Below, in pieces: positions 1,786-54,025 of a stretch of 64,000 bases of DNA. Where the stretch lies: NCBI GenBank assembly GCA_001724265.1, contig MEDY01000100.1, positions 1 to 64,000 on the forward strand. The letters run 5' to 3'. This DNA is from Rhizaria sp. SCN 62-66. Lineage: Eukaryota. The position numbers and the translations under genes are program-made. Under the pieces are notes generated by a model. That model was not told the DNA's origin. It worked only from the letters and a program-made list of their open reading frames with translations, and made no database searches. The first letter of the stretch is position 1. Every line of letters starts with the position of its first letter.

Positions 1786-4700
1786 ATGCCAACTGTCCTG
1801 TGGGTCTCTTCCCCGAACACATCATGCGCTCTATCCGCCCAGGTACGCTCAAGCTTGATCATAACAGACATTGTCTGTATTTACCGACGATGATAACTTA
1901 CATCATGTAATATCGCTCTATTTTTGGACTTGATAGCCTTTGATAGAGTCGTACGCGCGCGTCAACGGGTGGCGCATCGTCCCTGTGTCTTCACTCTCTT
2001 GCCCCAAAGCGCAACTCTTCCTGCACTCCGACCCGACTTCCCCGCTCACCATCGTCACGGAAATCTACGTTGAAACAGTACTGAACGCACTTGTGCGCGT
2101 GAACCGCGATATTTCCGTCGTGTTCTATCCTCCCTACGACGTCGACAAACGTTACGCGGCTGCCGCCTACCCGCCGCCCCCTGCGACTGCCACAGCCTCT
2201 GCCTCGGCCTTCTTCCCTGCTCTCGCTCCCACGCCGCCGCCGGGCTTGACTCCCGCCGCGGCCCGGCTGGCGCGGACGCCGCAGGAGTTGGTCCAGGCCG
2301 TCGCCACCGCGCTGCGCCTGCCGCTGCGCGCGCCGCCGCTCTCGGCCTTCCTCGGTTTCGGTCTCGACCTTGATTCCACGGCTGCGGCCGCTAGCTGTGC
2401 CGACGGAGACAGGAGCGTGCAGATGCGGGCGCAGGTTTGCGGCCCCGTTGCCCCGCGTTACCAGACGAGTGTACGCCTGCTGAACCCTCCTAGCGTTCGC
2501 GACTACAACTGCAACAACTGCAATAGCCCCAGTCACTGCCACTGCAACTGCGACAGCAGCGGCAACATTAGGATGAGTGCAGGTTGTGGCGCGTATTCCG
2601 CCGGTTATGCGGGCTTTGCCGGCACCGCCGCTAGCGATGCTGCCGATCATTACGCGATGGTTGAGGCCGAGCCTTACGCGGGTGCTGCTGCAGAGGCCGC
2701 GGACCTCGCGGCCGTGGCTGCTGCGACCTACGCCACCGCCGCGGCCGCGCGGGCCAGCGGGGCGAACGCTGCCGAGCACGGACACCTGCCTCTGCACCTC
2801 CACGCGCACAGCCAGAGCGGCCGCAGAGACTGCTGCACTGGTGGCGCCGCCATTGCGACTGAGTGCGCCTGTGTTGGCGTATGCGAGTGCTCTTTCCCTC
2901 GCATCAGCTGCAACAACAACAGCAACAACACCACTCACTCTTATAGTGTCGCGAACAGCGTCCTGCTGTCCCACAGCTCCACCGACGGCGCCAGCGGTAA
3001 CGGCGCCAACGGTGTCGTTATGGCCCGGAGCAGCCTCGCGCCGCTGCCGCACTACACGCACTGGAAGCGCGCGCGCGGCGACGCCGCCCCCGCGGACAGC
3101 TACTTCCTCGCCACGGGCGCGGCGGCGGCGCCCAGCGTGGCGGTCGCCGCCGACGCCGCTGCCAACGCCGTAGAGCTACGACGGCGCGCGGCCGGACTGA
3201 AGCCTGCGTACGACACTGCGCGACGCTGCTGCGCTGCCCACGGCCACTGCGCCACTGCCCACGGTCACTGTAAGGGCGCTCACAGTCGCATGGAGGTGAG
3301 CGCAGGCAAGGGCAGTGTGAGCGTGAGCTTGAGCAGGGGTGGGTGTGGTGCGCGGTGCTGCAAACAACACGGTAGCTCGTGCACGTGCCGTTGTACGTGT
3401 GCTCGTGTCGCGACGCTTGCCGTGCATAAGACAAACGACAACAACACCACAGATATCAGCGGCAGTATGAGCAGGAGCAGCAGAACAAGTAGCTCTACCA
3501 TGAGTGAGCTTCGCAGTGCCCCTGCTGAGAACGACGAAGCGAAAGCTACAGTGGAAGATGACATCCTGATTTCCCAGCATCACATCTGCAGTTCTGGCGT
3601 CACTCAGAACGATATCAGAGACGTCAGTGACGGCAATCCCAGCCATGCAGTTGCCGACAGAAGCGGTAGCTCGGAGAGTAACGTAAACGCAGGCAGCACG
3701 TTTGTTCCTCAAGAGGAGACCAAAGAGCCCCACGTTTCTAGCTCTCGCGACGATGCTTGCACCGCCAGTCCATCTTGCGCCGCCTCGGGCTCTCGCCCTG
3801 CCACAGACGCCATCGCGCTCGTGACCATGCGCGACGCCCGCGTGCTGGCCGCACAGAGCGCGCTCGCAGCCGCGCGCGGCGCCGCCACCGCGGCCAGCGC
3901 CGCGGTCAGCGCCGCGGCCGCGGAGGGCGAGAGCGCCAGCATGCGCGACCTGAGCGCGCGCGTCGCCGCGTTTACGCAGCGCGCGCAGGCTCTGCTCGCG
4001 CAATCAAGCGCTGGCGCAAGCTCTGCCAGCAGCACGAGCGTGAACGCGAGCGCTCCCTCTGTGTCGGGTTGCGCGACTGAATTGAGAAATGACACGACAG
4101 TCCTTCGCCGCAGTTATCAGAGTGTTGCGCGCGCCGAGCCGCCAGCAGTCGAGGTCTTCGACTCGCCGCTTTGCCCGCTGGCCCGCCTGCTGAACACCAG
4201 CACCCACACCGCGGTCCCGCTCGACAACCGGTCGTGGCGATCCGTCGACCACTACCTGCTGCACCTGACGCTGCTCGCAGCGGCGCTGCCGGGTCCCGCG
4301 CAGAGCATGCTCACGGTCCCCACGGTTGCTGTCGCGCACTTGGTCGCTTCACAGGCGCTCGCGAAGGCCAAGGACGCGCAGACCAACGCGGGCGCGCTCC
4401 CCGTGTTCACCCCGCACCTCACCACGAACGCGGACGTGGACGTGAACGCGAGCTAGAGTTTGGCCGCTGCCTCGACGGGCGCGACGGGACCGCTGCCCGG
4501 CGGCCGCGACGGCGCGGGCCCGCTGCGGCGCCCCGGAGTAGCCGTCGCGGCCGCGGACTGGGACTGCAACTCGCGCGCGCACTGGACCTCCCCGTCGCTG
4601 CGGCTGCAGATGCTGCGCGCCGTAAAGGCCAAGCTGGCAGCGTGCCCCGAGCTTAGGACCGCGTTGACGGCCACGGCGGGGCGCCAGCTCGTGTGGCGGG

Positions 4701-4786
4701 AGACGGCGCGGCACTGCCCGTTTGCGGTCAAGGCCAACGAGCAGCTGATGAAGATCCTCATGGGTATCCGCGACGGCAAGCTCTAA
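1786..4786 (+). CDS. Cys-rich, low-complexity protein with C-terminal NADAR/YbiA-like domain; contains an in-frame TAG at 4454-4456 (about 968 aa if read through)
   Basis: Exons 1786-1842 and 1937-4786, intron GTACGC...TTGATAG. NADAR-like motifs lie on both sides of the TAG: LDNRSWRSVDHYL before it; DWD...RLQMLRAVKAKLAACPELRTALTATAGRQLV...NEQLMKILMGIRD after it. GC-rich coding style persists to TAA 4784-4786. An extra upstream exon (ATG 1267-1313, spliced to 1776) is possible. Confidence 0.7.
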
Positions 4787-5175
4787 GTCGACAGCAGCTG
4801 AGCTAGGTTCAATTCGACATGTTTACTCATTGAGAGACGACGATATATATAGTTTAAGATAGAAATATAGAAATACAATGTTACCGTTTGTGACCAATTG
4901 AACTTTGTATTGTTGAAGGACGCTTGTACTGGCCCTTCTTAAAATAACTTTAGATCTCGTAACCATCACTAAAAAGACGACACGTGAAACCTAAAACGTA
5001 CTGAGACACTTTAATAAAATATTTACGACTACATGCTACAAACAGAGTAAAAAACTACGTAAGAATAACAAACCAATCAAAGCAACACAAACCCGAGACA
5101 AACCAACATAACTTAACGTTGCTTGTTCCGCGGTTGCGGTTAGAATACGACTGTTGAGTTTAAATTGCGCACTTC

Positions 5176-25315: not shown

Positions 25316-26088
25316 ATGCCCGGTGGTATTTCTTCCTCGGGCGTTGCGAGCTTACCCGAGCCCCGGCGCGAATCTTCCCCCTCACAACCGGAGAGCGCCC
25401 CCGTGCTTCACGGCTCGGCCACTGCCCCGGACCCGCTCGCCAGCCCGCCAGCCCCGCACTGCCCGCCGTCCCCGTCCTCTGCCTCGCTCTCGGCGGGTAC
25501 GCGCACCCCCAGCAGTGCGGGCACGCCGTCTCCCGCCCGCTCCCGCGCGCACTCCCCGACCCTAAACTCGTCAACTCAACGAGAAACCGCAGGCAATTCA
25601 CCCCAGGCCGCCCCGCGCGCGCTCACGGTTGACCCCGAGCCCGACGCCACCGTCGCCGCTGCGGTGCATTTTGGCCCCGCGCCGGCGTCGCCCACCACGC
25701 GCCGCCGCCTGCTGCTGCGGCAGCCGCCCAGCGTTACCGTGACCGCCGCCACCACCGCAGAGACGCAAAGTAACAACAGCAACGGCCTTGTCACTGCAGC
25801 TCCTCTGCCGCCCCCGTCTGTGCCCCCTGCCCCGTCTCTTCCCCCCGCAACCTCTGTTTCTGTCACTGGCGCCGGCTCTAGCGCTGGCCCCGTGACTGCG
25901 ACTGCCACTGCGACTGGGACGGAGACCGGGACTGCGAGCGCTGCCGCTACCGTGCCGCCGGCGCTCGCCGTCTCCTCCGCGGCCGCGCACGCGCTGGACT
26001 CGCTCACGGCGCTGCTGCGCGGGCAGGCGCAGTTCCTTCTTGTCGCGGGCCACGAGCTGGGCGTGGACGGCGCCGACGACCTCGAGAT

Positions 26089-26125
<37 letters not shown>

Positions 26126-29100
26126 GATGCGAGCAACACTCTCGTCGCCCGGAGCAAGGGCAGCAACTCGGTCGACGGCTACGAGGGCATCCGTCTTGCA
26201 GCCGGGCTGCCAGACGGCTTAACTTCCACCTCCAGCACCGTTGGCGACGCTGGCGGCCTGCATTCCACCTCTACAAGCCCTAACGCCGCCGCGGCCGCTG
26301 CCGCGGCCGCTGCCGCCGCGGCCGCTGCCGCCGCGGCCGCCGACGCCGCCGACGCCGAGGGCGCGGCCGCCGTGGCCGCCGAGCGCCGCCGCCGCCGTGC
26401 GCTGTTGCGGGCGGCGCGGCACACGCGCTGGGAGGTGCCGCTACCCATGGGCGCTGCGGCAGTGCTGGAATACGAGCAGCTGCACGGGTCGCTGCCGGAG
26501 CCGGGGACGGCCGAAAGCGACGCTCTCTTCCACATCACTTCCAACAACAACAGCGCCAACGTCAACGGCAATGGGAGCAGCACCGCGGGCAAGTTTCAGT
26601 CCGGCCTCGTCGGTGCGAGTTTGAGCGTGAGTCTCAGCCACGCTGGCAGCGGCGCTCACCGGCCCGGGCTGCGGCAGGGGCTGTCCGAGGTCGCGCTCGA
26701 CGCCGCCACGTTAGCCCGCGACGATACGTTCAATAACAACTTTAGCGCGAGTCCGAGCGCGAACGTCGGGGGCAACTTCACTAACGGCGGCTTCTTTTCG
26801 CTCGCGCGCAACAACGGGCTCGTGCCTTCTGACTCCGCCGCGAACGGCGGCAGCGCGCTGCTGAACAGCTCGAGCGTCGCGGACGGCGACAGCGGCTTTG
26901 TCGGCAGCAGCAGCGGCTGGGGCGGCGACGGCGAGCGCCTCAGCAGCCTCGACCCCGGCGCGTACAACTACACTGACACGGCTACAGACGACAACAACAA
27001 CAATAACAATACTAACAACGCCAACTCTTTGGGCCACACCGCACCGAATGCGCTTGTGTTGTCGTCGTCGAACTTGTCGAGTAACGCGAACAACAGCACC
27101 GCAAGCCTGGTTTCGACGCCGACCGCCGCGGCCGGACTGGGCCTGTCGCTGGCGTCGTCGTCGCGCCTCGGCGGGTCGCTGCTGGAGGCGCGCGAGGACG
27201 GCTCCCGCACGCACACGGTCACCAACAACGTCGTGCGCTGGCTTAAGGTGTGCATCAAGCCCGCCAAGTACGTCGGCCCCGACGAGCGCGCCGCCGCCAA
27301 GCGCAGGCAGGAGCAGGAACGGCTGCACGGCCAGTCGCAGTCGCGGCGCATCGTCATGGACACGCTTGGCATGGGCATCGCGGCTTCGGCGAAAACTAAC
27401 TACAACAGCAAATCAAACGCGTACGTCTTATAACCACTTCACAGAGCGATCTCCTCTGTAATGTTGCATTTTCACACAATTATATTATTTTAGTTTCCCA
27501 CTCATTTTTAACACCCTTTCATTCTTCGCCCCACACAGCGCTGACGACGTCGCTGCGGCGGACAAGGCCGCGGACGAGTTCATCGCCTCGCACCCGGTCT
27601 GGGACGGCGTGCGCACACGCCAGGACAAGATCGACCAGTACAAGCAGCGCTCCCTGCACTTTTTCGAGCCCGAACACCCGTTCCGGCGCGCGTGCATCAT
27701 GACGGTGCACAACAAGTGGTTCGACCGGCTAATCGCAGTCACCGTCTTCGTCTGCTTCTTGTTCCTCGCCTTCGCCTCGGCGCGGGAGTCCCGCACCATG
27801 GCTACGGAGAAGAACATCTTCTACTGGGCCGAGCTGTCCTTTTCCACGCTCTTCACGATCGAGTTCCTGCTCAAGATTGTCGCCATGGGCTTCATCAACG
27901 CCGGGCCCCGCAGCTACCTCCGCAGCGGGTATAACATCATCGACTTCTGCGTGCTCTGGGTGGGCTGGATGTCGCTATCGCCACAGATCCGCTGGACCGC
28001 CATCCGGTCTCTGCGTTTGCTGCGTATCATCAAAATCGTCAACGCCATCAAGGGCATCCGCATCCAGGTCACCGCGATCATCTCGTCCATCCCTTCGCTG
28101 CGGTCAGTCTTCATGTTTTCCATGTACATCATCGTGCTCTTCGCCGTCTTCTTCACGCGCTTCGCCATGGGCGAAATGCGCTACCGCTGCACCGACTCGT
28201 CCACGGCCACAGCGCCGCCGGAGGTCGTGCTTTCGGGCCCCATGTGCTCCACGGACCCGTTCTGGGGCCGCAAATGCTCCGTGGCCGACTACGGGCCCGA
28301 CGCGGGCTGCCGCGACATCGGTGCCAATCCGAACTGGGGCGTTACGTCCTTCGACAACGTCGGCGTTGCCGCACTTAACATGCTCATCTGCACCTCGATG
28401 GAAGGCTGGAGCGAGATTATGTACTTGTACGGCGAAGTGACGACGCGCTGGATGTACATCCCGTTCCTCATCTTCATGCTGCTGGCCGCCTACGTCGCGC
28501 TGCGCTTTATCTCAGCCGTGCTGGTGCTGCGCTACGAGCAGGGCAAGGCCGCCGCCGAGTCGATTGAGGCGCTGTTCAAGTGGAAGAAGACCCGCCAGCA
28601 GCGCATCACGGTCAACAAGGTCGGCGGCATCGACGGCCAGGTCGCCGACATCTCCGCGCCGCAGCCCTCCGCGGCTTTCAGCGAGCTGGACAGAACCGTG
28701 AGCGTGGCTCCTGTGGCGACATCCATGGGCGCTGTGCTGGCGCAGGTCTCGCCCCGCGCGCTCTCCGCGAACAGCGCGTGCGGCGGCGCGGGCAGCAGCG
28801 GCAACCTGCTCACGCACAGCTCGAGCGTTTTCGCCAGCTCCGGATCCGGCGCCACCGCCACCGCTAGCGCTAGCAATGGCTCTGCTGCTGGTGCTGCTGG
28901 CAAGGGGCATGATGTGCCTCTGTATCTCGCTGCTGCGGCTGAGGTCGAGGCCGCCGCCGCTGCTGCTGCCGCCGCCGTCGCGGTCACCGACAACTCGACT
29001 GCGAGTGCAGGCGTGGAGATGCCGGTGCCCGCTGACCTGCCGTTCGAGATCCCCGTCTCCGCTCCCGTGACCTTCGCGATGGCGCTGGCGTGGCAACAGG

Positions 29101-32100
29101 TCGGCGACAAGGCCTCGTCCTTTGTCCACTCGGACCTCACCGGCAGCGCTGCCAACGCCAACGCGGCCTCGGCTGAGGCTGCGACTGCCGGCGCGGGTGA
29201 CGCGGCGGGGAAGACGCGCTCTCGCTCGGGCACGAAGACCTCGGTGCCCCGGGCTCCCAGTGCTCCGAGCGCGGCTGCTGCTGGCGGCATCATTGCGAGT
29301 AAGTTCAACGAGGAGGAGGAAGAGGAGGATGCCGTGAGGCCCATGCCTAGCTTTGGCCGCACCGCCGCTGCCTCCACGGCCTCAGTCGCCCCCGTCACCG
29401 CGCCTACTCAGGGCGCTCAGAGCGCGCAGAGCGAGCATGCTCACGATCATATGGTGCTGCGCCTGAACACGGGGCTGACGATCAACAGCAACGTCGACGA
29501 CAGCGACGACGATGACGAGCACGCCCACGCCCGCCACATCGTCGACTCCAACGGCATTGCGGGGACGCTGACAGGCGACAACGACAACGGCGACGACTTC
29601 GGGCTCGCGTCCCCGAACCAGTTCACCGCGCCGCCCACCCAGCCCATGCCGCTCACGCCCTCGGTCTCGCTCACCGTCACAAACAGCCGCAACGCCGCCG
29701 CGGGCCCCGTCATCGGCGGCGGCGGCGGCCCGTACAAGTCCCCTGGGGTGGTCCCGCGGTCGCCGCGCTGCTCCCCGCTGGCGCTGGCGATGCCGCTGCC
29801 GGCGATCACGCCCACCGCGCGCCTCAGCATCGTCGGCACAGGCTCGCTCCTCGCGCCGCACGACCCCAACGCCAGCGGCCACGCCACCGCCGCCGCGGGC
29901 GACTCGGCGACAGACCCGCAGCAGCAGCAACAGGCGCAGACGCCATTGCAGCAGCAGATGCAGCGTCGCCGCGCGTCCTTCAACCGCTCCTCCGCCACGG
30001 GCGCCTCCCTGAGCCGCGGCTGGGACGTCGACACGCTCGACTCAGGCTACGGCGGACCCTCGGCCGACCCCCTCGCGGCCGCCGGATTTACGCAGCCACC
30101 CATGGACGCCGGCCTGCAGCCGCCGCAGCAGTACGGCCGGTCGCCGGTGGTCCCGGGCGCCGCCGGCAACACGCTCACGGTTCCCGGGCTGTTGCTGACC
30201 GCCGCGGGCGCCCCGGGCGGCAGCCGCGGCAACAGCCCCGGCGCCAGCCCCCGGGGCAGCGTCAGCCGCGGCATGCCCTTCTTCAGCCCCGGTGGCCGCG
30301 CCAACCCCGGGAGCAGCTCGGCCGCGACGCCGGTCGGCGTGATGGGCGACGACGCGGTCATCGCCCCCCGCAGCGCCAGCGCCAGTGTGGCGTCACCGCG
30401 CAAGGTGCCCGACCTGGCGCTACCGCCGCCGCCCGTGCCGGCCCCACCGCCCCCGGACGACGACGACGACGATGTCCACGACGGCGGCAGCAGGGGCCCG
30501 CTGGCGCCCCCGCACCCGCCGCCGCGCCCCGACGGCAGCGGCGCGAACGACGGCACGCCCGCGACCGCTGCCGCTGACGCAGAGGCGCTGGCCGAACTGA
30601 CGCGGCAGCGCGGCGCGTCCCGGCTCCGGTCCGACACCGTCTCCCTCGTGTCCCCCTCGAACGCCAACGCTGATATCGCTGACAACGTCGACTTCAATCG
30701 CCAGGCCAGCGGCAGCGTCTCGCGCAGCGGCGGTGTCGAGTCCGGCAACAGCTTCCGCGGCCAGCCCCGGCTGCGCGCGGCGACCCAGGCGCTGCCGCCG
30801 CAGCAGCAGCAGGCGCCGCCGTCGCCGGTGCCGAGCAACAGCGCACGGCTGCTGGGCGCGGGCGGTGCGGCGGGCAGCAGCAGCAGCGGGACACCTATGC
30901 AGCGCAGCAGGTTCTACTCGCAGACGCACTAGCCACAGGCGCTGTCACAGCAGGGGGAGCGGTCCAACACGCAGCAACAGCAGCAGCAGCAGCAGCGGAG
31001 ACTGCGGCACCGCGTGCCTAAGGCTACCGGTGTGTCTTCAACCGGCGATAACGGTGACACAAACAACAACGCGGGCGGCGCCAGCGACATGTTCACGTTC
31101 GGCTACGACCACGACGACGATCACGACGACAACAACGACGATGGTGACGACAACTACAACGGCGAAAACGCCGCGGCCGCCGGTGAGAAGGCCGGTCTGA
31201 GCAAGGACAAGGACAACTCACGGTCCTTTTGGGAGGCGCTGCGCATCGGCTGCGTGCGATGCTGCCAGCGCGGCGGCTCGGGCGGCTGCTTCGCGCGCTC
31301 GGACCCGCGGTATGACCCCGCGCTGGGCTACGCCGTGGACCAAAAGAAGGACAAGGCCGAGGACGAATACCACGGCTGCTACTCGAAGCGCGCTGTGTGT
31401 GTGCGCAACCCCTTCCGGCTGCGCGTGGGCCACGTCGTCCGGTCCATTGTGTTCCAGCTCGTGATTTACCTGATCGTGCTGTACAACACTGTGACCATCT
31501 CGGTGCAGTACTACGGCATGAGCACCAGCATGAGCGACTGGATCTACGCGTCCACGCTCTGCTGCACCGCGCTTTTTCTCGCCGAGGGCCTGCTCAAGCT
31601 CTACGGTCTGGGCCCCTACGAGTACTTCCGCTCCGGCTACAACCTCGCTGAGGCCGCGGTCACCATCGGCGCGCTCATTGAAGCTATTTTGACCGACGGC
31701 GTGTCCATCTCGGCGCTCCACGTGCTGCGGTTCATCCGCCTCTTCGAGGAGGACACGTTGCTGAAGGCCGCGAAGGACTACCGCGCCTGGCAGCTGCTGC
31801 GCAAGCAGGAGGCCGTGCAGCGCGCCTCGGACGCTGGCGACGCCGCCGCTTTGGCGGCCGCGACCGCGGCGCTGGCTGAGGAGGAGGAGGCCGCCGCCAA
31901 CGCCAACGGCGGCGGGGCGTCGTGGCAGCAGAGCAGCAAGTTCATTCGGACTAAGTACTTCATCCGTACCATCGTGTCCTCGGCTAAGGACACCTTCTAC
32001 TGCATCTGCATCCTGATCGCGTTCATCTTCTTCGCCGCCGTCATCGGCCGCTCGTTCTTGGAGGGCAAGATGGTCGACCTCGACGGATTCCCCGTGCGCA

Positions 32101-35100
32101 ACAACTTCAACTCGTTCTTCTGGTCCTGCGTCACCGTCTTCCAGGTCATGACGCCCGAGAACTGGAACACGGTGCTCTACGACGCCAAGCACGCCGTCGG
32201 CTGGCCGGGCGCGATCTTCATCCTCGGCATCTTCCTCCTCGGCTTCTACATCATGATGTCGCTGTTTCTGGCCGTGATGGTCGTCAACTTCGACGTGCAG
32301 ACCGAGGAGGGCGCACAGGTCGCCGACGAAGAGAAGGAACGCAAAGACCAGGAAGTGTGTGTCGTGCTCGCGGCCACGGTCACCGCGCTCAGCCACACGG
32401 AGCAGCTGCCCGTGCTCTACCACCGGTACACCACGGAGCGCGCCACGGCGCCCGCGCTCGCGGGCGGCGACTCGCGCCACATCACCGGGCTGCAGCAGCA
32501 GGTCGCGCGCCGCGTCGCCGCCTCGCACACGCACCGCGGCAGCGCCGCCGCGGCCGCTGCTGCGGCGGGGCACAGTGTGTACGGCGCCAACGCGGCCGCC
32601 GGCGGGAGTCAGTTCAGCACGATGAGTAGCAACGGCGCCGGCTCTGTCGGCGGACATAGGCGCCGCAACGGCAACACCACGCGGCAGAACACGGCCACCG
32701 GCAGCAAAAACTCGCCACCGCCGCCCCCGCCCCCGCAGCAGAGGCCCACGACCAGCCCCAACTCGAACAGCTCCGACTCTGGCTCCACTGCAGGCAGCGG
32801 GGGCAACGGCGGCGGGACTACCCCCGTGCCTCTGGCTCGTAGTCCGCTCGGCATGTCTTTCTTCACGCCTCCCTCTGCCCTCGCAGACGCCAACAGCAAC
32901 GGCGGCGACAGCGACCGCGCGGACGGCGACGACGACAACGTCGGGCCGATGCCGCGCTTCGGCGCCGGCGGTGGCGGTAGTGGTGGCGGCAACGGCCGTC
33001 CGCTGCCGCCGCCGCCGGCCCCGCCCGCGCCCCCCGGCCCGCCCGCTCTGCTGTCCACGGCGGTGAGCCGCGTCTCCGTGGACCACGGGAAGGCCTTTGC
33101 CGCCGCCACGGCCGCCGGCCCCGTCGCCACGATCGCGGCCTCCGTCTCGGACAGCGTCGCGGGGCTGGAAGCGAGCGCCAGCATGCCCGACAGCGGCGAC
33201 GGCGGCGGCGCCAGCTTCGCGTCACCGGCCGCGTCCCACGCCGCTCAAGCGCCCATCTACGACGAGTACTACCTCTCTGAGCACCTGGACGACCTCGCGG
33301 CCCTGCCGGAGCCGTACGTGCCCGCCGTGGTGCCTTCGGCCGTCGCGGCCACGGCCTCGGTGACGCGGCTGCCGTACACGCACCTGGCCTTCCACAATCA
33401 TGAGCACCGACTCACGCGCGCCGAGAGCGTCTTCGGCCGCTGCTGCTCGCGCCTCGCCAAGACGCGCTCGCGCGGCCAGACGGGCCACAAGCAGGGCAGC
33501 GGCACTGTCACGGCCTCGGCGCGCGCGGAAAGCAAGACCGGTGCCCCGGCCGCTGGCGGCAACAGCAGCGCCGCCGCCGCGGTGGTCGGCGCGGGCGGCA
33601 CCGGGAGCGACGTGTCCATGTCTGGCGGCATCGGCGACGGGCCCTTCACGCTCATCGACGGCGACGTCGCCGCCGGCGTGCGCAAGCACGCCTGGGAGGT
33701 CGGCCGCCGCTGGCGTAGGCTTGTGTCGGCGGCACTCAGCTCCACGCGCGCCGTGCTGCGCGGCTACGGGAGCAGTGACGCGCAGATCGAAGAAGAACTG
33801 GAAAACACAGCGACCGAGGACATCGTGAAGCAACACAACGTCAATGTGTACAACGGCGTGGTGTCATACCGCGACCTCAAGTACCCGCCCGGATCCTTCA
33901 GCAAGCTCACCAACTTTGTCGTCGACCTCAAGGTCTACGACAAGTCGCGCGCCAAGCTCTTCGGCATGGACCTTACCTCGGAGCTGCGGCTGCTGTGCAT
34001 CGCATGCGCCAACTCGGCCCTCACGCGCACCGACTTCGAGTCGCTCTTCGGCCGCCGCTTCCTGGCGCGCGAGCACGCCGTCATCGCGCGCAGGCTGCTC
34101 GCGATGCGGTCCGCCGCGGCGCAGGCGGCCAACGCGGCGCCTGGCGAGCGCGAGTTTGCGCTACTATGCCGCGTCAACCCGTGGGAGCTGGTGACTGAGA
34201 TCTCGGGCGTGTTCGGCGAAAACGAAGAGGAGGAGTACATCGACGACTACGAGGCTTCGTCGCTGCACGGCTTCCCCGGCTACCCGTACTTCCCCGAAGA
34301 CGAGGGCTGGCTGCGCGAGGAGGTCGTCGAGAGGGCCACAGGCATCCCCTTCCGCGACCGGCCGCTGGTCCAGCTGCCGTACATGCTCGGCGCGCAGGAC
34401 CGCGCCGCCCCTGACAGCGGCAGCACCGCTGGCACGGGCGCTGGCACCGGATCGAGCGTCTACAGCGGCGGCAGCTCTGTGGGCTCGAGCACGGGCGCGC
34501 CGCCCGAGCTGGAGCACCGCCGCTCGCTCATCGGCGGATCAAACAGCGCGACAGTGAATAGCCTTGTGCGCCCCAGCTTCGGCCGGCCGTCGTCGTTGCT
34601 GATGCAGCCGCGCTCCTCCCTGCTCGCCCTAAAGGAGCAGCAGCAGGGCAATGGTGGCATCGCGCCGGCCCTGTTGGCTCAGGCGCAGGCGCAGGGCAAT
34701 GGCAAGATGCCCGAGCTGCTGAGCGCGTCGCAAACCCAGTCCGCGGCGTCCTTCGGCGCCACTCCCGCGTTCGGCCGCCAGACCTCGCCGCCGCCGCTGT
34801 TGGCCTCGCTGTCCGGCAGCAGCACCGGCAGCGGCGGCCCGCCCCCGCTGCGCCGCCAGAGCACGCACGCGCGCCTCATGTCCTCTGATATGATGTTTGA
34901 CGGCGAGATGCTCGGCGACAGCGGCAGCGGCCCGGGCTACGGGCTCTACGGCAGCAGCAGCAGTCTGGCCGGCGCGGGCGCGAGCAGCCCCACGATGAGC
35001 CGCGGCGGGAGCAGTCGCCGTCTCTTGGCGGTCAACGAGAGCTCCAGCGCCGGCATGGGGCTGCACGTCACCAGTAGCTCGGTCGGCTCGGCTCTCACCT

Positions 35101-38100
35101 CGAGCAGCACCAACATCACGAGCGCAGGCGATCAACAACAGCAACAGCAGCAGGACAACAGCCATGTGGCCGAGGCCGTCAGCGCCGCCGTCGCCGCCAC
35201 CGAGGCCATAAACTCTCAGAACGTCACCCTCGCGCAGCTGTCAATGTCGCAGCCGTTCTACTCCACCTCCGGCTTCAACTTCAACCTCAGCCACACCAAC
35301 GCGTCGATGACGCTGCCCGGCTACGCCGCGGCCTCCGGCATCGCGGCCGCGGTGCACGCGCGCTGGTACCTCCGCGACCTGGACGACTTCAAGTCGGGCC
35401 GCGACGTGCTGATCCTCAATGGCCGCCTTGTCACGCCGCCCGCACCGCCTACGCTCTTCCCCGGCCAGACGCTCAACAGCAACCCCGACAGCGTCAGTGA
35501 CTCCGCCGCCGCCGCTGCTGCGGCTGGGTCGCCCAGCAGCGCGGCGACCGCGGGCACAGTGCTTAACGCAGCCGTCTCGCACGCCATCGCGTTCGCGGCG
35601 GCCACGCACCCACGCGACCTCATCACGCCCTTCTACTACACGGCCTACATCCGCGGCACGCGCCGCCTCGAGCGCCTCCGCTGCGCGCTGGCGCAGGCGC
35701 GCGCGGACGCATTCCCGTCCCCCGCCGTCACCGCGGCGTCGGCGGCGCTCAAGGCTGACGTCATTGCTTATCTGCGCGGCAAGGCCGGGCTGAGCACGCT
35801 CAAGCGCCACGGCGTCAACGTCAACCGCCTGCGCTGGGCCGTGCACGAGCGGCGCTCCTTCTCGCCCCTGGGTGCGCTGCTGCACACGGCCGACTTCCTG
35901 GTCGGCGACGAGAGCTCCGTACTCGCTTTCAACTCGCCGCTGCAGGACCGCCAGATGTTCTCCTCGACGTACTCGCACTACAACATGCGGCTCACCTCGC
36001 GCATCGTGGACCCGCTCAACCGCTTGCTGCGCCCCGTGTGGGACGTCTCGGCGCGCCCGCCACGCAGCACGGTCGACCACGCGTCGCCGTACGCCGCGCT
36101 GGCGGCCCGCGCGAAGCTGCGCGCCGTGCTCAGCGCGCCGCACAACGAGGCCGTCACCGTCGCGTGGCAGGTCCCCGGCCTGCAGACCGCACTGCACGGC
36201 GGCGCGCCGCATGCGGGCGGCAGCGCGGGCGGCAGCGCCGGTGTGGGCTCGAGCGCGTACAACAGTATGAGCAGCGGCGCGCTCACTGCAAGCGGGGCTG
36301 CAAGCCCGCATGCTACGACGGGCAGCCACAGCACCTTGATGCGCCGCGGCGGCAGTGCGTACAACGTTAACACGTACAACGGCAGCAACGGCGGCACGTT
36401 CAACGGCAACACGTACAACGGCGGCACGTCTAAGTTCAGCACCAAGCTGACTGGCTACGTCAACAACCTCATTTCCGACTCGTCCGCGTCCTCGCTGTCG
36501 GCCGACTTTACCTCCGACGCCGCGTCCGAGGCTGAACGCATCCTCTGGGGCATCCCGTCGAACCCCGCCGCGTTTGCCGCCGCCACGGCCGCCGCGCGCG
36601 CCGCGGCCTACGGAGCGCCCCCGACCCGCAGCAGCGACTACTCGAGCAGCAGCGCCAGCGATACGTCGATGACCTCGGCGGGCCCTGCCTTCGCCCTGGG
36701 CGCTCCCGTGTCTGCGCTGCTGGCGCCCCCGCGTGTGCCGGTGTTGCCCGCGCGGTTTGGCATCCAGTACGCGATTCCGGTTCCGCCGCGGCGGCCCGTG
36801 GACAAGAAGATGCTCAAGCGTATTGAACGCCGCGAGACCCGCGAGAAGGACGCGCTCGAGGCCCTGTTCACGACGGTCAACGCGGTGCGGTCCGCGCTGG
36901 GCGAGGACGAGCTCGTTCGCGACTTGATCGGACTGGAGGCGATGGAGGCAGCGGAGCATCTGCACGAGGCTGAGACCGCCGCTGCACGCGCTGCCGCCGC
37001 CCCAACCGCGGCTGCCGAGGTCAGCAAGACGGCTGTGGCGGCGGCGACCGCCGGCCCGAGAGTGCCGGCGACGCCGACGGGCGGCAGGAAGCTCATGTTC
37101 TCACTCGACGCGCTGCCGAGAGTGCTGCCGGACGACAGTGCCGCCGCACAGGCCGAGGCCGAGGCCAACGCCGCATACGCCGCCGCGGCCGCCGAGGCCG
37201 CCGCGGTGTCTGCCGCGGCGCCGCTGCCTCTGCAGGGCTCTGGCTCGCTGACGCAGCAGCAGTCGACGCGCCAGGCCTCGCAGACCTCGGGCACGCCCAG
37301 TTTGCCGCGCCGCGCCAGCACCGTCACCGGCCCCGGCGCCTCCGCGGCCGCCACCGCCGCCGCCGCCGACGCGGCCGCCGCGGCGCCGTCTACGACGACG
37401 GTCCTGCACCCGGATGACGAGCGTCTGCTCATGGACCGCGAGCCCTACTGCGTGTGCTGCGAAGCCTCGCTGCCGCCCGCGGTCCGCGACTGCGTCGTGC
37501 GTCTGCGTTACCGCGACTACAACTTCGGCTTCATCTCGCGCTCGCATCCCTCGCGCCGCTACGCGCTCCAGCTCGTGCTTCACCCCGCTTTTGAACTCAC
37601 CTTCATGGTGCTCATTTTCTTCTCGTGCGTCGTGCTCGCGCTCGACCACCCCGATGTCCACGCGCAGTCGCGCCTGGGCCGGTTCGTGTCTATATCCAAC
37701 TGGTTCATCACCATCGTCTTCGCGCTGGAAATCCTGCTCAAGATCTGGGCCCACGGCCTTATCCTCAACATCAACGCCTACCTGCAGGACGGCTGGAACG
37801 TCTTCGACTTTATTGCCGTCGTCGTCTCCACCATTTCCTTCTTTGTCCGCTCCACGCGATTCGCCATGGGTCTTCGCTCGCTCCGCGGGCTTCGTGCGCT
37901 GCGCTTTGTGTCATACTTTGAGTCGACGCGCGAGGTCGCGTCCGGCATCGGCAAGGCCTTTGTGGCGTGCATCCCCATCTTCCTCTTCGGGCTGCTGCTC
38001 TTTGTGCTCTACGGCTCGCTGGGTGTCGCCTTCTTCAAGGGCAAGCTGCGCCGCTGCTACGACCCCTTCTCGGCGACGCCGTTGGAGGAGCTGCCGTTCG

Positions 38101-41100
38101 ATGAGATCTCGTGTTTGGCGCAGAACTTCATCTGGCGCAACCCCTTCGCGTTCGGCAACTTCGACTCGCTGGGCGCGGCCTTCCTCGTGCTCTTCGAGTT
38201 CTGCACCATGGAGGGCTGGCCCGGCTACATGTACCTGCTCGCCGACGCCACGCCTGTGGGCATGCAGCCCAAGGTCAACTATAACCCGTACAATGCCCTC
38301 TACGTCGTCTTCGCGATCATTCTCTTCGGGTTTTTCTACCTTAACCTGTTCATCGGTACCATCGTCGACTCGTTCGACTCGTCCGTCGCAACCGACCTCA
38401 ACGAACTCCAGGTCGCCTGGCTGCAGACGTACCGCCTCATCCTCGACCACCGCCCCGTGACGCGGCTGCTGGAGCCCCGCACGGGCCCCATTGACGACGC
38501 CGACTCGTCCTCATCCTCGTCCTCCTCGAGCGACTCCTCGGACAACGAGGCCGAGGACGACGGCAAGGGCGGCAAGCGCGGCGGCAAGTCCGCCAAGAGC
38601 GGCGCCGCTATCACGCTCGACGCCAACGGCGACGCGGTCATTACGCGCGCTGCCGCGTCGGCCAAGACCTCGGTCGCGCGCTGGCAACGCTCGCACGCCG
38701 CCGTGCGCATGCGCCGCGCCGAGCGCGAGAGCTTTGCGGAGCTCAAGCGGCTGCGCATCCACCGCCGCGCCGTCGCGCACGTGGCGCGCTCGGCGGGGCT
38801 TCACCTCGAGCAGTACCAAGGCCAGAGCCAGTCTGCCGCTGCCACTGCCGCTGCGGCGGCATCGACCGAGGCGAACAACCTGAAGGACGCCGTGTCGGCT
38901 GCTGTGAACCACTCCAGCGCGAATAACACATCTGCTGCACCTGGCGCTGGCGCTGGCGCTGGCGCTGGCGCTGGCAGTGCGAGGCCCAAGGTCCCCGCGC
39001 CGCCGGCCTACTTCGACGCCTTCAACTTGCACTCGGCGCACCCGTACCTGCCCAACACCAACTACATCTTCGACGAAGAGGCGCTGCAGCGTGACATCGC
39101 GCTCCCGGCGCCCGCGGACTCGCGCGGCGTGCTACGTCTGCTTGCCGTCGCGCCAGTCGTGACGCAGGAGACGCGCATGCTCACCGAGCTCCTCAAGCTC
39201 GGACAGGCGCAGGTACGGATACTAGTTTTGATTCACATCGATATAATTGAAAAGCATATGTTTCTGAATAACTCCTCTCACATTTCGTAACTTTCCTATG
39301 TTGACTCCTTTGTTTCTCCTTTGTATCTCAGGGCTCGGGCCCCGCGTCCGCCCGCCTCCGCGAGCTGCGCCGGCTGCACCGCGTGGCGCAGGCCAACTCG
39401 GCGGCGCTGGCTGCGCAGCTGGCGCAGGCCCGTGAGCGCGTGACGAGCATCGCCGACGCGGCGGGCTCGGGCGAGGCCATCACCGTCGACACGTCCGTCT
39501 ACGGCGTTACCGAGACGGAGCTGCCGTGGTGGCGCCGCGCGCTGGCGACCGTGTGCTGCTGCTGCTTCGACAGCGGGGAGAAGAAGGTCATCGCACTTGA
39601 TGAGTACGGCAACGAGAGAACGCCCAACGGCAGCTCGGCCGGCGCGGGCGGGCTCGGTGCGATGTTCGGCCTCGCCAGGGGCCACCAGTCCGGCGCCGGC
39701 GGCGACGCCAACGCGGACGGCAATGACTCAAGCGCCAGCACGAGCAGCCGGTCGAAGCGCGTGAGCCGCGCAGTGTGGGCCGTGGTGCGCACCGCGCGCC
39801 ACAGCCTGTTCCAGCTCGTCTCGCTATCTGGCTTCAACGACTTCATGCTCGGCGTGCTCTGCTTCAACATCATCGTCATGATTATGCAGTACGCCGGCAT
39901 GGGTCACACGTACGCGCGCGTGCTCGAGATCGCCCACGACTGCTGCTCCATCGCGTTCATGACCGAGTGCGTGTTCAAGATTCTCGGCATCGGCTTCCAC
40001 CAATACTTCCGCAACCGCTGGTTCCAGGTACGTTTAACACTTAAGTAGCACACATTTACTTGCGATATTCCTTTCTATCTCTACATGTATCAATGGTTAT
40101 TCAAGTTTCTTCTTGCACTCATTCCACTTTGTTTTCTTTCTTTATATCTCAATAGGTTGAAGCGCTGATTGCGGTCGCGTGCGGCATCGACTTCGTGTGC
40201 ACGTCGATGGGCGTGTACAACTTCTCCCAGGTTGGAGTCGACCCGCAGATCTTTACGTCAATCCGCCTGTTGCGCGCCATCTACATTGCGCGTCGTGTGT
40301 CTTCTTTCCGCCAAATCTCCAACACGATCATGTTCTCGTTCCGCGCGCTTAAGAACGTCGGTTTCATCTTCCTCATCGTCATGTTCGTCTACTCGGTCAT
40401 GGGCATGAACCTCTTTGCGCACGTCAAGAAGTTCGACCGCCTCGACTCGCGCGCCAACTTTGACAACTTCATCAACGCCTTTTTGGTATTGTTCCGCGCC
40501 GTCACAGGCGAGGACTGGAACCCAATCATGCGCGAGCTGGCCATCCCGCCGCCCTTCTGCGACCCCACCGCTGGCGACTGCGGCTCCGCACCCCAGGCCT
40601 ACGTGTTCTTTGTCACGTTCCAGCTTATCCTCGCCTTCCTGCTGCTTAACATGGTAATCGCCGTCATCTTCAAGCAGTTCGAGCAGGAGATGGTGCTCTT
40701 CAAGGCGCGTCAGCAACTCGCCTCGAGCGACTCGGCGGGCGCGCTCGTCTCGGCGGGTCAGCACTCGCGCGGCGCCGGCACGCGCGGGCTCTGCAACAAG
40801 CTGCGCGTGTACATCTACCGCACACTCTTGCCGGGCGGCTTTCTCTTCTTCCTGCTCTCACCCGCGCAGTGGCACCGCTGGGTCTGCTGCAAGCCCTGCT
40901 ACAGCAAGACGCACGCGCGCGCCGCGCGCGAGTACGCTCGCCGCAAGTTCGCCGCCACCGCCGCCGCCAACAACGGCAACGGCAACGGTAACGGCGGCAA
41001 CGGCGTGGGTAGAAGCGCGAGTAGAACGGACCGCGTCCTCACTGCTGGCGCTGACACCGCCCCCGCGTTTGTCAACAGCGCGAGCCCCAGCAGCGCCAAC

Positions 41101-44100
41101 AGCGCCGGCGAGATCGAGATGAGCGTCATCAGCCCCGCCACGGCCAACTTCGCCCGAGCGGCCTCGAACACGATTAACGGCAATACCGCGGGCAACACCG
41201 CCGGCACTGCGACAGCGAGCAGTGACGCTGCGCCCTCATCCTCGTCGCCCCCCGCGAGCGCGGCGCCCGCGACCAACGCGAGCGCCCATAGCCCCACCAA
41301 CGGCAACGGCAACGGCAACGGGGCCAGCGCGACGATGTCCGCGTCGGCGTGCGTGCGCGCGGCGACCGAGACGCTGCTGTTGGCGGCGCAGTCGACGCTG
41401 CCGCCGCTGCTGGCGCACGAGTCCATCACGAGCCGCGCCATCGACGCCGAGCTGCGCACCTACGAAAAGCGCCTCCGCAAGACGCTCGTCAAGTTTGCGT
41501 GGGGCGTGCTCGAGGGCTCGTTCGCGGGCCGGGGTTTCGACGCCAACGGCGCGCTCGTGCTCATCGATGCCGCCGCCACGCTCAACCCAGGTCAAAACGC
41601 CACCGTTGCTGTGTCCTCGGCTTCCTCCGCAATCACAGTGAACGCCCCCGCGGCGGCCGCGAAGATCGCCGGCGCGGTAACCCTGGCCCCCGCGCACTCG
41701 CCGACGATGCCCGCGCTGGCGGCCGCCGCGGCGTCGGCGTCGCCGTTCCCGGCGTACGTCAAGGTCGCCGCGCTGCAGCCCGCCGTGCTCACGGCGACTG
41801 TGCGCCGCCGCCTCACCGCCGCCGCCGCGCTTGCCGCACGCGCGCGCGCGCACCGGCCGTTCCGTGCGGCCGTGCGCCGCAACCTTTTTTACTCGAACGC
41901 GGCCGGCACGCGCACGCTCGCTGACGCGCTCGAAGTGACTGCGGCGGACCCCGCGCTCGCTGGACTTGGCCAAAAGGCTGTTGAAGCAGAGCTTGCGTCG
42001 CTCAAACGCTCGTTTGAGTTCGAGTCCGACCTCAACGCCGCGTTCAACGAGGCGCTCGTCGAGGCTGTGATCGCGTCCAACACCAACGCCTCCGAGAGCA
42101 ACGCCGCTGGCAACAGCAACTCGGTCGGCAGCAAGATGGCCGTGCAGAACGCGGTCGCCGTGGCCGCCAGCGACGTCGCCGCGGCCTCGGCGGCCCAGGT
42201 GCTCGTCGCGCTTAAGGCCGAGGGCGAGGGCGACGTCGTCTCCGTGTTCCCTGTCCCGCTGCGCATCCCTCTCGCATCACACACCGCCGCCGCTGCTACC
42301 GCGGCCGCCTCTGCGGGCGCCAACGCTGCGGCTGCGGCAGTCGCGACTGAGGCAGTAGCCGCCGGTGCCGCCGCAGTCGCCGCTGGCTCCGCGTTCACTG
42401 TCACCTCTGCTGCTCCTGCGGCCGGCAGCGGCGGCCTGTACGGCGACGTGCCGCCCCCGCCCGCTGTGTACGACCGCAGCACCGGCGCGCCCGTGGGCGG
42501 CGTCGCGGTCGTGCCCGCGCCCGCGCCCCAGCAGAGCGCGCCCGGCCAACCCGCGGGACTCGCGACCCGCCCCGGCCAGGCCGCCGCCGCCGCCGGCGTG
42601 CTGGCGCCCCCCGAGGTGCAGCGCTCGCAGTCGGTGATCCCGCTCAACCCGGGCTACAACGTCTCCGACTCGGAGTCCGAGTACGACGGCTTCTCGCGCC
42701 AGAACACGCTCTCGCTTGACAAGCAGGACTCAGTCGAGTCGAACCCCAACAGCAACGGCCGGGGCCCGCTGCCACCCCCGCCCTTGCCTTTGTCTCACTC
42801 GAGCGACGCTGCCAACGTGGTCGCCGCTGCCGCCGCTGAGGCCGAGGCCGACGCCCGCGCTCGCGCCATCGCCGCCGCGACCGCGGCCGCGGACATGACC
42901 GACAGCTTCGAGCCCCTGCCGCTGCCTCCCGGCCTGACTCTGTTCTCCGGCTTCGCCTGCGACACCTCTCAGGTCACGTGCACGCTCATCGCCTCCGCGG
43001 CCCACGTCGCTCTGCTGTCCAACACCGCCAACGGCGCGGTTGGAACCTCGTCCACTGCGATCGGCGCCGCCCTGTCGTCGACGCCCCTCTCGACCTCGCC
43101 CAGCAACGGGTCGCTGCCCAGCAACGCGAGCACGAGCGAGGCGACCACCCCGAGTGCGAGCGCCACCGCCCACGCGATGCCCGCGCTGGGCGAGTTCGAC
43201 GAAGAGACTGACGCGTCGCTCTCGTTCGGCGCTTCGGCCGAGCAGGCCCACGCGCTGCGTTTGGCCCGCGGCCTGAGCTCCCTCACGCGCCGCACCGCGC
43301 TCAACGTGGCGACGCACAAGCCGTCCTCGGCCGCGGACCTGGAGCTGCACCGCATCACGGCCAACGCCGCGGCCGCGACCTCGGGCGTGTCCACGGGCAA
43401 GGTACTCCCGATCCTCGCCAGCCACATGCTGCAGTTCAACCAGCAGTGGACGCATCTCAGCTACGCAGGGCTCCCGGACACCTCGCACCTGGCCTCGGAC
43501 GCCGCGCGCCGCGCCGCCCGCGTCGGTAACGCGCTGTCGCCGCGCCACTTCTACGACCCCGAGCTGCCCGCCGTGCCGCTGCTGCGCGTCTCGCACCTGC
43601 CCGTGCTGCTTGCGCGCCTGCCGCCGCCGCTGCGGCCCGTGCTGCGCCCGCCCGTGCTGCGCGCGCTGTCGGAGCACGTGCGCCGCAAGGTCTTCGTCGA
43701 CTTCGACACGCACACGCTGGGCCCCGCGCGCAGGCGCATGGCGCGCCAGCAGCGTCGCGCCTACGCGCTGCACGCGCGCCTCACGCGCGCGCATAGGCTG
43801 CTAGTCAAGCGCGCCAGGTGCAACAACAAGTCCTACGACGACGAGGATGCTGACGGTGCCATCACGGACGACGAGGACGACGCCTTCATCGCCCTTGCCC
43901 ACGCGATCTACGCCCCTGCCGACGCCAAGAACAGCGCACCCGGCTCCAGCGCGCGCGTGCCGGTGCCTCATTCCCTGTCGTCCCTGTCGACCCCCGACCT
44001 CACTGCCGCGTACACCGCGCTGCTGTCGGCCTACATAGCCCTGGAGCGCTCCCGCCGCGGCCACGCGCGCGCCTACACGGCGGCGCTGGCGACCCGCGAC

Positions 44101-46230
44101 GCGCTGATGGCGTCCCCGGCCGTGACGAACCCCGTGGCGGCGAACCCGGCGCTGGCGATGGTGTGGCTTATCGACGACCTGGCCATCCCCACCGACGGCC
44201 TCTACGTGCACTACGTCGACGTGCTTTACCGCCTCTGTCTGCACGCGTTCGCGCGCCAGTCGCCGCTCGGCGCCGCCGCGGCCGCACTGCAGCAGGCCAC
44301 CGAGGCGCTCCGCTCCCACGGCGCGAGCAACGGCCCTGCGCACAAGACGGCGACCGACGCCGCTGGCGCCACCGGTGCCGGCGGGGCCGAGCTGTCCGCG
44401 GCGGCCGCGCTGGTGCTGCACTTCGCGCAGCCGCCGGCGGACTTCGCGTCCTTTGCGCTGGCCGCCGTGCGCGCGCGCGTGCTCGAGGTGGCGACCATGG
44501 CCCGCGTGCGCGCGGTCATCCAGCGCCACAGCTACTTCGACGAGAACCTCGTCAAGGAAATCCGCTCGCAGCAGCGCGCAGACGGCGGCACCTCCGCGGC
44601 CGCTGCGGCGGCCGCGGCGGCCGCTGCCGCGGCCGCAGCTGCAGCTGCGGCTGAGGCCGCGGCCGCGGCCGCGAACGGGCAGGCGGCAGGCGGCCTGGAC
44701 ACCGCCGGCGGGCACAGTGTGTACAGCACCAACTCCGTCGGTATGAGCAAGGGCGGCACCGTGCGCCTCGCGGGCACGCGCTCGCGCGCCGGCACCGCCT
44801 CGTTCCCCGGCGGCTACAACGGCAGCTCGGTCTCGGTCTCGGTTAACGCCGGTAACAACCACGGCCACGCGGCGGGCGCGGGCGGCCGGTCGGTGCTGTC
44901 CCCCATCGCGGGCTCCCCGGCCTCGGTGGGGACGACGCTTAACACCACGGGCGGCTCCTCGCCGGCCACCGGCTCCGGACTGGGCAGCGGCGGGCTGACT
45001 CTGCGCCACGGTCGCATCAGCCTCGGTGGCAGCGTCTACGGTGGCAGCGTCAACGGTGGCAGCGTCAACGGCAACAGCACTGGTGACGCCGGCATTGCCG
45101 CCGGCGCCCCTGCGTACGTCACGGCGCCCCACCACGACGCATCCACGGCTTTGTCGCACGCCAGCTCTGGTGACAACAGTCACTTTGCTGCCAACACGAA
45201 CAGCGACCGCGACTCGGGCAACTCCCCGCTCAGCGTGACCCGCACGATCAACCACACGGGCAGCAGCCACAGCAACGCCAACAGCCTCCGCTATAACGGC
45301 CACAACGGCGTCGCGACCCACTCGGCGATCACGCCCGCGGCCGTCGCGGCCAGCGTGGCGGCCGCGGACGCCGCGGCGACCGAGGAGGCGTGGGCCAACA
45401 ACCGGCGCAAGATCGCGACCTGGCTGGCGCGCGCGCACAACGCCCCCACGCTGGCCTCGCCGTCGCCTGACCAGCGCTACAACCTGATCGACTTCGACGC
45501 GCTCCTCGCTGACATCCACGCCGATGCCTACGACAACACCACGGGCAGCTCCGCCGCGGCTGCGAGTCCGAACGCGAGCGAGTGGCGCGCGCGCTTCGCG
45601 CACGGCAGCGAGTTCTCGATCGACGAGAAGTCTCCCGCGTTGCGCCTGACGGGGCTGACGGCGCTCGAGGCCGTGGAGCGCGTGGTCGATCTGGTCCCCA
45701 GCGACGACGTCAAGCTCGAGACGCTGCGCGCGCAGGCGCAGGAGAAGTTCCCCGAGCTCTATGAGCGCAAACCGATCCTGCTCGACGCGGGCGTCGTGCT
45801 GCGCGTGATCCGCATCCAGCGCTGGTGGCGCGCCGTCGCGTTGCCCCGCGTGCTGGCGAAACGCATCGCCGAGGAGCGGGAGCGCCTCGTTGAGGTCGAG
45901 CGCTCCGTGCGCCTTGCGGCGGCTGCGGCTGCGGCGGCCAAGGGCGTTGGCGCCGCGGCCACGGCGGACAATGACAACCACACCGATATGAACACCACCA
46001 GCGCCACCACCGGCAGCAGCAGTCTGAATCCGCCACCCGCGCCGCCGCTTTACAGCGGAACCGCGGGCGGACTGGCGTACAACAGCGTCGGCGGCAGCTC
46101 CGTGTACCACGGCAGGCCCGCATTTGACACCATCGTCGGGAGCAGCAGCGCGAGCAACAATGTGATGCCGCAGTTTTCCGCCCTCGGCGAAGCAGGTGGC
46201 GCGAATGGCAATGAGACTGACTTGTGGTAA
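25316..46230 (+). CDS. Giant four-domain (4x6TM) Ca2+-type voltage-gated-superfamily channel alpha subunit, EEEE filter, about 6849 aa; contains an in-frame TAG at 30930-30932
   Basis: Exons 25316-27420, 27539-39212, 39332-40027 and 40156-46230, all with GTACG donors and consistent phases. Pore motifs SMEGW (E 28401), TPENW (32157), TMEGW (38211), TGEDW (40510); S4 segments such as IRSLRLLRIIK and LRSLRGLRALRF; IQ motif IQRWWR at 45814. Confidence 0.9.
26092..26341 (+). repeat. Coding (GAC)n poly-Asp and (GCN)n poly-Ala tracts in the channel N-terminus
   Basis: GAC run at about 26093-26122 and a run of 19 Ala codons at 26285-26341. Similar tracts occur throughout the large CDSs, e.g. 44596-44672. 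Confidence 0.8.

Positions 46231-53992: not shown

Positions 53993-54025
<33 letters not shown>

Follow-up and report, generated by a model that had tools for sequence, protein, structure and literature searches.

Does the TAG codon that interrupts a long open reading frame (ORF) near the start of contig MEDY01000100.1 end translation, or is it read as an amino acid? The window analysed here is the first 64,000 nucleotides (nt) of this single contig, which belongs to an assembly labelled Rhizaria sp. SCN 62-66, and it was studied from its sequence alone; all positions refer to the whole stretch. The gene in question, called gene A in what follows, carries the TAG at 4454-4456, between the two halves of a NADAR/YbiA-like domain, and a second in-frame TAG lies within an ion-channel gene of the same window. 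Because two unrelated genes each have a TAG in the middle of a protein whose parts on both sides are needed, it is suggested that the organism reads this codon as an amino acid. We put at roughly 0.6 the probability that this rhizarian-like organism translates UAG as a sense codon of rare use and retains UAA and UGA as its terminators.

The window is eukaryote-like: its ORFs are long and GC-rich (65-80% GC), its spacers are AT-rich, and it has a few introns, which are short and AT-rich. Gene A is laid out as listed below, where P0001 is the read-through translation of its C-terminal domain (228 amino acids (aa), with X at the TAG), P0004 is a homologue described further on, and GC3 is the G+C fraction at third codon positions.

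1786..1842, + strand: predicted first exon of gene A, with ATG at 1786 and GTACGC following at 1843
1843..1936, + strand: predicted intron 1 of gene A, 94 nt and 36% GC, running GTACGC...GATAG, with features as in eight other introns of the window
1937..4786, + strand: main exon of gene A, ending in TAA at 4784-4786; the TAG at 4454-4456 is counted among its 949 codons
4454..4456, + strand: in-frame TAG, residue 119 of P0001 and codon 840 of the main exon
4784..4786, + strand: terminator TAA of gene A; GC3 and GC drop after it, and P0004 ends at the same alignment column

The TAG at 4454-4456 is all that separates two ORFs of the same frame, one of 838 aa (1940..4456) and one of 108 aa (4460..4786). 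The initial annotation had described this arrangement together with its context, AGC TAG AGT TTG, and with the peptides SWRSVDHYL upstream and MLRAVKAKL, PELRTALTATAGRQLV and LMKILMGIRD downstream, and all of these are present as it gave them. The composition of the DNA does not change at the TAG: GC3 is 0.921 for 4151-4453 and 0.908 for 4457-4783, and falls to 0.41 for 4787-5175, while the next 100 nt have 84% GC after the TAG versus 36% after the TAA. On this GC3 and GC profile, the coding signature passes the TAG and stops at the TAA, and the same figures bear out the proposal that AT-rich sequence begins only after 4786, where GC3 is around 0.4.

Homology likewise runs through the codon. 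The 108 downstream codons match homologues of other organisms, P0004 at an expect value (E) of 1.2e-40, and P0005 aligns across the TAG column as one stretch (query 8-225). A longer homologue, P0007, is colinear with the read-through of gene A, both in a middle segment (E 0.005) and in the C-terminal domain (E 4e-15); its likeness to the N-terminus encoded by the predicted first exon is loose only (E 0.17). Gene A is best explained as encoding one predicted protein of about 968 residues, rich in low complexity, with a divergent NADAR/YbiA-like C-terminus. Within it, at 2480-2560, 2830-2900 and 3200-3400, there are Cys/His-rich low-complexity runs with C-x-C-x-C and H-C-x-x-x-H-G-H-C patterns, and these recur in P0007 at the same relative position.

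What, then, is the domain that the TAG divides? Six proteins came out of an exhaustive HMMER search of 1.84 billion representative sequences. P0002, which ends at the TAG, and P0003 are ORF pieces of the window itself, and the other four are true homologues: P0004 (251 aa, 55% identity), P0005 (455 aa), P0006 (249 aa) and P0007 (1067 aa). Both domain halves stand in one unbroken chain in all four non-self homologues. Pfam and NCBIfam gave no family for either half or for P0001, even at E<=10. The gathering score of PF08719 is not reached by the gene A domain, and three of the five members of the alignment, scanned singly, match that family below threshold (best E 0.018). A profile built from this alignment, A1, which holds the gene A read-through and the four homologues, matched the Protein Data Bank (PDB) sequence of Escherichia coli YbiA (2b3w) with an E of 9.8e-8 in two stretches, YbiA 33-74 being matched by the part upstream of the TAG and 64-157 by the part downstream of it; the match to the Phytophthora NADAR protein 8bau was weak (E 0.14).

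Structure prediction points the same way. An AlphaFold2 model from the five-row alignment has a mean predicted local distance difference test score (pLDDT) of 75.8 and a predicted template modelling score of 0.68, with residues of about 17-98 and 153-228 confident and forming one domain, while residues 99-136 and 138-152 have pLDDT <50, and the TAG, at residue 119, falls inside this loop. Foldseek against the PDB ranked 2b3w first (probability 1.00, template modelling (TM) score 0.64 per target length, E 0.014) and 8bau second (probability 0.98, TM 0.59 per target length, E 0.37), with the remaining 21 matches at a probability of 0.10 or less; the E-values are weak, and the model beneath them comes from an alignment of only five sequences. 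The parts of the domain are as follows.

4148..4393, + strand: N-terminal NADAR/YbiA-like half with the S-V-D-H-Y motif (residues 17-98, block-mean pLDDT 76-95), aligned to YbiA 33-74, with invariant columns D21...A83
4394..4555, + strand: predicted disordered, length-variable loop between the halves, pLDDT <50, about 28 residues shorter in P0004
4556..4783, + strand: C-terminal NADAR/YbiA-like half (residues 153-228, pLDDT 87-97 from residue 161), aligned to YbiA 64-157, with invariant columns R159...R224

The residue block 151-160, at the start of the second half, averages pLDDT 69, and the loop between the halves is nearly absent in P0006 in alignment A1. From the profile and the model, we conclude that the C-terminus of gene A is a predicted divergent NADAR/YbiA-fold domain with its halves on either side of the TAG. 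The initial annotation had read this domain as NADAR-like and as split in half by the TAG, and both points hold, the first through the YbiA profile match and the two Foldseek hits, with Pfam itself making no call. Since the TAG lies in the low-confidence loop 99-152, it parts the domain halves and does not hit the core.

The resemblance to the NADAR family (DUF1768, PF08719) extends to the order of motifs, in which an N-terminal S-x-[ED]-H-Y block comes first and a C-terminal helical block with N-x-L-x-x-I-L-x-x-I-R at its end comes second, to profile similarity to YbiA over both halves, and to the fold match with 2b3w and 8bau (TM 0.64 and 0.59). It has limits. Besides falling below the Pfam threshold, the gene A domain and its homologues replace the Glu of the S-x-E-H-Y block, which the sections available of a study of residue roles in NADAR proteins give as conserved across the superfamily (PMC11543638), with Asp in all five sequences (invariant D50 of P0001). 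An invariant His, H205, lies in the region of the second catalytic position, which is Glu, Asp or His near the C-terminal block. YbiA's D-x-x-W-G region has no recognisable counterpart. An inserted loop of about 55 residues sets the halves apart, and the domain shares its chain with about 740 residues of low complexity. With only four non-self homologues in 1.84 billion representatives, the finding defines a small, lineage-restricted, divergent NADAR-like branch. A word-indexed search with the read-through domain returned only the window's own piece among proteins of near lengths and nothing among longer ones, an empty result that is weak evidence; no unsplit close relative of full length came up in it. 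Among bacterial and archaeal genome contigs, none of 192 pattern matches was confirmed as a relative of the domain, and the 39 nt surrounding the TAG had no exact match there.

Do the homologues say which amino acid the codon would specify? Opposite the TAG they have gaps or non-conserved residues in A1, so they do not indicate it. An orthologue alignment at this column had been proposed as a check on decoding; it showed a domain unbroken in four of four homologues, and the column itself points to no residue.

When single stops with long, open frames of high GC3 on both sides were sought, a second case came up in a gene on the same strand, with the following parts.

25316..46230, + strand: four-domain ion-channel gene, with a probable first exon 25316-27420 and exons 27539-39212, 39332-40027 and 40156-46230
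27421..27538, 39213..39331 and 40028..40155, + strand: introns of the channel gene, from the intron survey given below
30930..30932, + strand: second in-frame TAG, context CAC TAG CCA CAG, in the linker that joins channel domain I to domain II

With this TAG read as sense, a single open frame runs from 27462 to 39287, and the 60 codons on either side of it have GC3 values of 0.93 and 0.80. Of the Pfam Ion_trans domains, I lies upstream of the TAG, II and III follow it within the same exon, and IV is divided by the intron 40028-40155 into profile positions 4-69 and 71-235. The gene is, by its predicted domains, a classical four-domain cation channel with a TAG in the I-II linker, a linker of low complexity. 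If translation stopped at 30930, the product would have a single domain, and domains II-IV would lack a start. A 705-aa ORF (25316-27420) without a Pfam match ends at GTACGT...CACAG; through this predicted junction it is probably the 5' exon of the channel gene and not a separate gene.

The census of stop codons in the window completes the picture. Across nine genes and 16,283 in-frame codons there are two TAG, no TAA and no TGA. The terminators of the same genes, counted with three apparent ORF ends recognised as introns, are TAA in six, TGA in three and TAG in none:

TAA at 4784: gene A
TAA at 5176 (- strand): UTP10
TAA at 19833: RRB1
TAA at 46228: the channel gene
TAA at 47553 (- strand): the ORF at 47556
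TAA at 51561: the ORF at 49905
TGA at 23510: POLA2
TGA at 52964 (- strand): the ORF at 52967
TGA at 57502 (- strand): the ORF at 57505

For RRB1, both the intron and the TAA find confirmation in a relative, P0009, whose C-terminus matches the spliced exon. UAG is thus in frame in two of nine genes with a downstream part that is needed, the NADAR-like half beyond 4454 and the channel domains beyond 30930. As an observation in its own right, TAA is the commonest terminator (six of nine) though third codon positions are about 90% G+C, a composition that alone predicts the opposite.

How would such decoding work? The TAG at 4454-4456, in the disordered loop between the domain halves, would be translated as an amino acid, with translation ending at the TAA at 4784-4786, and the TAG at 30930-30932 in the channel I-II linker would be translated likewise. 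The simplest cause would be an organism that uses UAG, rarely, as sense and stops at UAA and UGA. By analogy with known cases, UAG might be read by a tRNA whose anticodon is CUA, and Gln and Leu are the candidates with precedent for the residue inserted. The sequence shows the continuous frame, the coding signature, the intact domain, the second case and the census of stops; what we infer is the decoding itself, its extent across the genome and the tRNA mechanism. The earlier suggestion that the gene A codon is probably decoded is supported, indirectly, and is strengthened by the second in-frame TAG and by the lack of TAG among the nine terminators.

Several observations weigh against a sense UAG. 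It occurs at 0.12 per 1000 codons, and with 476 CAG and 67 TTG codons in the window, many more would be expected of a codon that served freely as a synonym for Gln or Leu. From this gap it follows that decoding would be young, inefficient or selected against, or that the phenomenon is local. The evidence comes down to two TAG codons, both in unalignable disordered linkers; neither can be placed on a conserved column, and for that reason no amino acid is assignable. That both stops are TAG does not separate reassignment from mutation, because with GC3 near 0.9 TAG makes up 71-74% of one-step nonsense changes. The absence of TAG from nine terminators is statistically weak, with P of about 0.03-0.08 by our own arithmetic if TAG were 25-33% of stops. 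Within the 64 kb there are no tRNA genes and no Rfam matches, and eRF1 is not in the window. The rhizarian placement, taken up below, comes from one protein and a quick search, with branch support of 92 and 91 only.

Could the low usage itself be informative? We suggest, tentatively, that this may be an early-stage UAG stop-to-sense reassignment, separate from the heavy-use code of the rhizarian exLh. UAG would already have gone from the terminators, with UAA dominant despite GC3 near 0.9, and would be returning as a sense codon at a frequency of about 0.1 per 1000 codons, confined to disordered sites free of constraint. If true, such a case would be a natural snapshot of an intermediate step in nuclear code change.

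Among the alternatives to a sense UAG, the one that survives best, though we consider it unlikely, is that both TAGs are real premature stops, either recent nonsense mutations in young pseudogenes or null alleles, or base errors of the assembly, with downstream sequence that has not yet decayed. The share of TAG among one-step nonsense changes (71-74%) fits this explanation, as does the position of both sites in repetitive, slippage-prone, low-complexity DNA, and the assembly is environmental and of unknown quality. It would, however, require two of nine genes in 64 kb to be freshly broken. In the window's codon usage only 2.3% of random substitutions are nonsense, so two nonsense errors would go with about 90 erroneous substitutions over 49 kb, whereas 16,283 codons are free of frameshifts and of any other stop. 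GC3 is also held at 0.91 for 109 codons beyond the gene A TAG, against about 37% GC in local non-coding DNA. P0004 carries the domain intact, and P0002, the ORF piece that the TAG terminates, is recorded on two other contigs, neither of them as long as the window (3,159 nt at most), which argues that the stop is not peculiar to one assembly.

It is also improbable that the organism uses the standard code and that the two UAGs are passed by leaky or programmed near-cognate readthrough, with UAG a stop elsewhere and the full-length protein made in some fraction. Two sites only, an extremely low usage and positions where any residue would be tolerated agree with this, and the channel TAG has a C at +4, a leaky context. 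Yet the two codons have no shared context (AGC TAG AGT TTG vs CAC TAG CCA CAG), and no readthrough-stimulating structure was found in the 107 nt from each TAG, which fold no better than shuffled sequence (z -1.28 for gene A and +0.55 for the channel; two control stretches gave +0.98 and -0.09). A four-domain channel made from inefficient readthrough alone is hard to rationalise, and the lack of TAG as terminator in any of nine genes would be left unexplained.

The remaining alternative concerns RNA, from which the TAG might be removed as an unconventional short, GC-rich intron (15, 21 or 54 nt in gene A) or in which it might be changed by U-to-C editing. The introns of the window provide the standard for comparison:

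1843-1936, 19461-19693, 20430-20598, 20898-21065, 22543-22701, 27421-27538, 39213-39331, 40028-40155 and 60697-60850 (- strand): the nine introns

All nine are of 94-233 nt and 29-49% GC, start with GTA and end with YAG. Their 5' splice site is uniform (GTACG in seven of nine, GTAAG in one and GTACT in one), and they stand as AT-rich introns inside exons of 65-80% GC. When all frame-preserving GT..AG spans of up to 150 nt that enclose a TAG were collected, there were 8 in gene A and 7 in the channel gene. The GTG...TAG spans of 15, 21 and 54 nt envisaged at the outset do formally exist, at 4442-4456, 4436-4456 and 4403-4456, and the stretch missing from P0004 ends near the TAG. Yet none of the 15 candidate spans starts with GTA, and all have 60-70% GC. 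The longer spans in gene A (114-141 nt) would delete conserved residues, including an invariant V-A-H. In the channel the shortest frame-preserving span is 90 nt (30911-31000), and a span ending at the TAG itself takes at least 105 nt. An intron over either TAG was set aside as unlikely, on composition and splice sites unlike those of the nine real introns. As for editing, nuclear U-to-C changes are not known from such organisms, and removal or change of the TAG in RNA seems to us very improbable.

Where does the organism, a GC-rich, intron-poor eukaryote, belong? The homologue of RRB1/GRWD1 (17934-19460 joined to 19694-19835) has a relative at 69% identity and named matches at 43-46% identity. 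In a quick maximum-likelihood tree of 36 of the 120 listed hits, picked by name or closeness, a clade unites the window's RRB1 with Bigelowiella, Amorphochlora and Plasmodiophora, the two nested forks having support of 92 and 91 in the Shimodaira-Hasegawa-like approximate likelihood ratio test. This placement is a single-gene hint of Rhizaria, and no more.

Other genes of the window have features of their own. The UTP10/HEATR1 homologue (5176-17172, - strand) has U3snoRNP10 and BP28CT domains in a single intron-less ORF of 3998 aa, with GC up to 80%; UTP10/HEATR1 proteins are usually about half that length. No Pfam family was found for the GC3-rich genes at 49905-51560 (+ strand), 47556-48530 (- strand) and 52967-56806 (- strand), in the first of which GC is unusually low over codon positions 1 and 2 (0.49), while GC3 is 0.89. 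The longest AT-rich spacer of the window (46202-47483, about 1.3 kb, 36-42% GC) separates two convergent genes, the channel gene and the one at 47556.

The question has practical consequences, as gene calling with the standard code cuts both genes. The gene A domain stands in the database as P0002 and P0003, and the channel is split into pieces of 1107 aa and 2758 aa, the first a one-domain "channel". Annotation of the genome therefore requires the code question to be settled first. A further UAG-sense lineage, very GC-rich and sparing in its use of the codon, would also bear on how code changes start.

How does the window compare with known systems in which UAG is passed? Programmed readthrough, viral or cellular, likewise has one in-frame UAG followed by an essential downstream coding region; it differs in that the two TAGs here have no common context or downstream structure and affect two unrelated genes. 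Reassignment of UAG alone in nuclear genomes is rare, having been reported, in the portions of the literature at hand, for exLh, Iotanema and some phyllopharyngean ciliates. A full-text literature search returned no further report of a rhizarian sense UAG, and from 2018 on, among the matches listed, ciliates only.

In the fornicate Iotanema spirale, according to the available part of its description, UAG encodes Gln and UAA is the main stop (Panek et al. 2017, PMC5304391). As proposed here, UAG alone is reassigned and UAA is kept; in contrast, that lineage is unrelated (Metamonada), and its amino acid was set from many conserved columns. In phyllopharyngean ciliates, as far as the sections available go, UAG encodes Leu or Gln, UAA is the preferred stop and suppressor tRNA genes have been identified (McGowan et al. 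2024, PMC11687900). There too the reassignment is of UAG only and was mined from environmental genome assemblies, but sense UAG is widespread, whereas usage in the window is minimal.

The closest parallel is exLh, a rhizarian of the Sainouroidea, for which the accessible text reports UAG as Leu, with 384 in-frame UAG codons in 71 genes and terminators of 56 UAA and 15 UGA (PMC5304391); in that text 'GC content', 'GC-rich' and 'G+C' have 0 occurrences, and it makes no statement on GC content. On these partial data, usage of UAG in the window is by our own estimate about 100-fold lower (2 in 16,283 codons), and UAG occupies conserved Leu columns in exLh, unlike the unalignable loops in which both TAGs lie here. 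The likenesses are that exLh is rhizarian, as the grouping of the window's RRB1 with Rhizaria likewise hints, that in-frame UAG occurs in ordinary genes, and that UAA and UGA are the only terminators in the data reported, with UAA dominant in both (56:15 there and 6:3 here).

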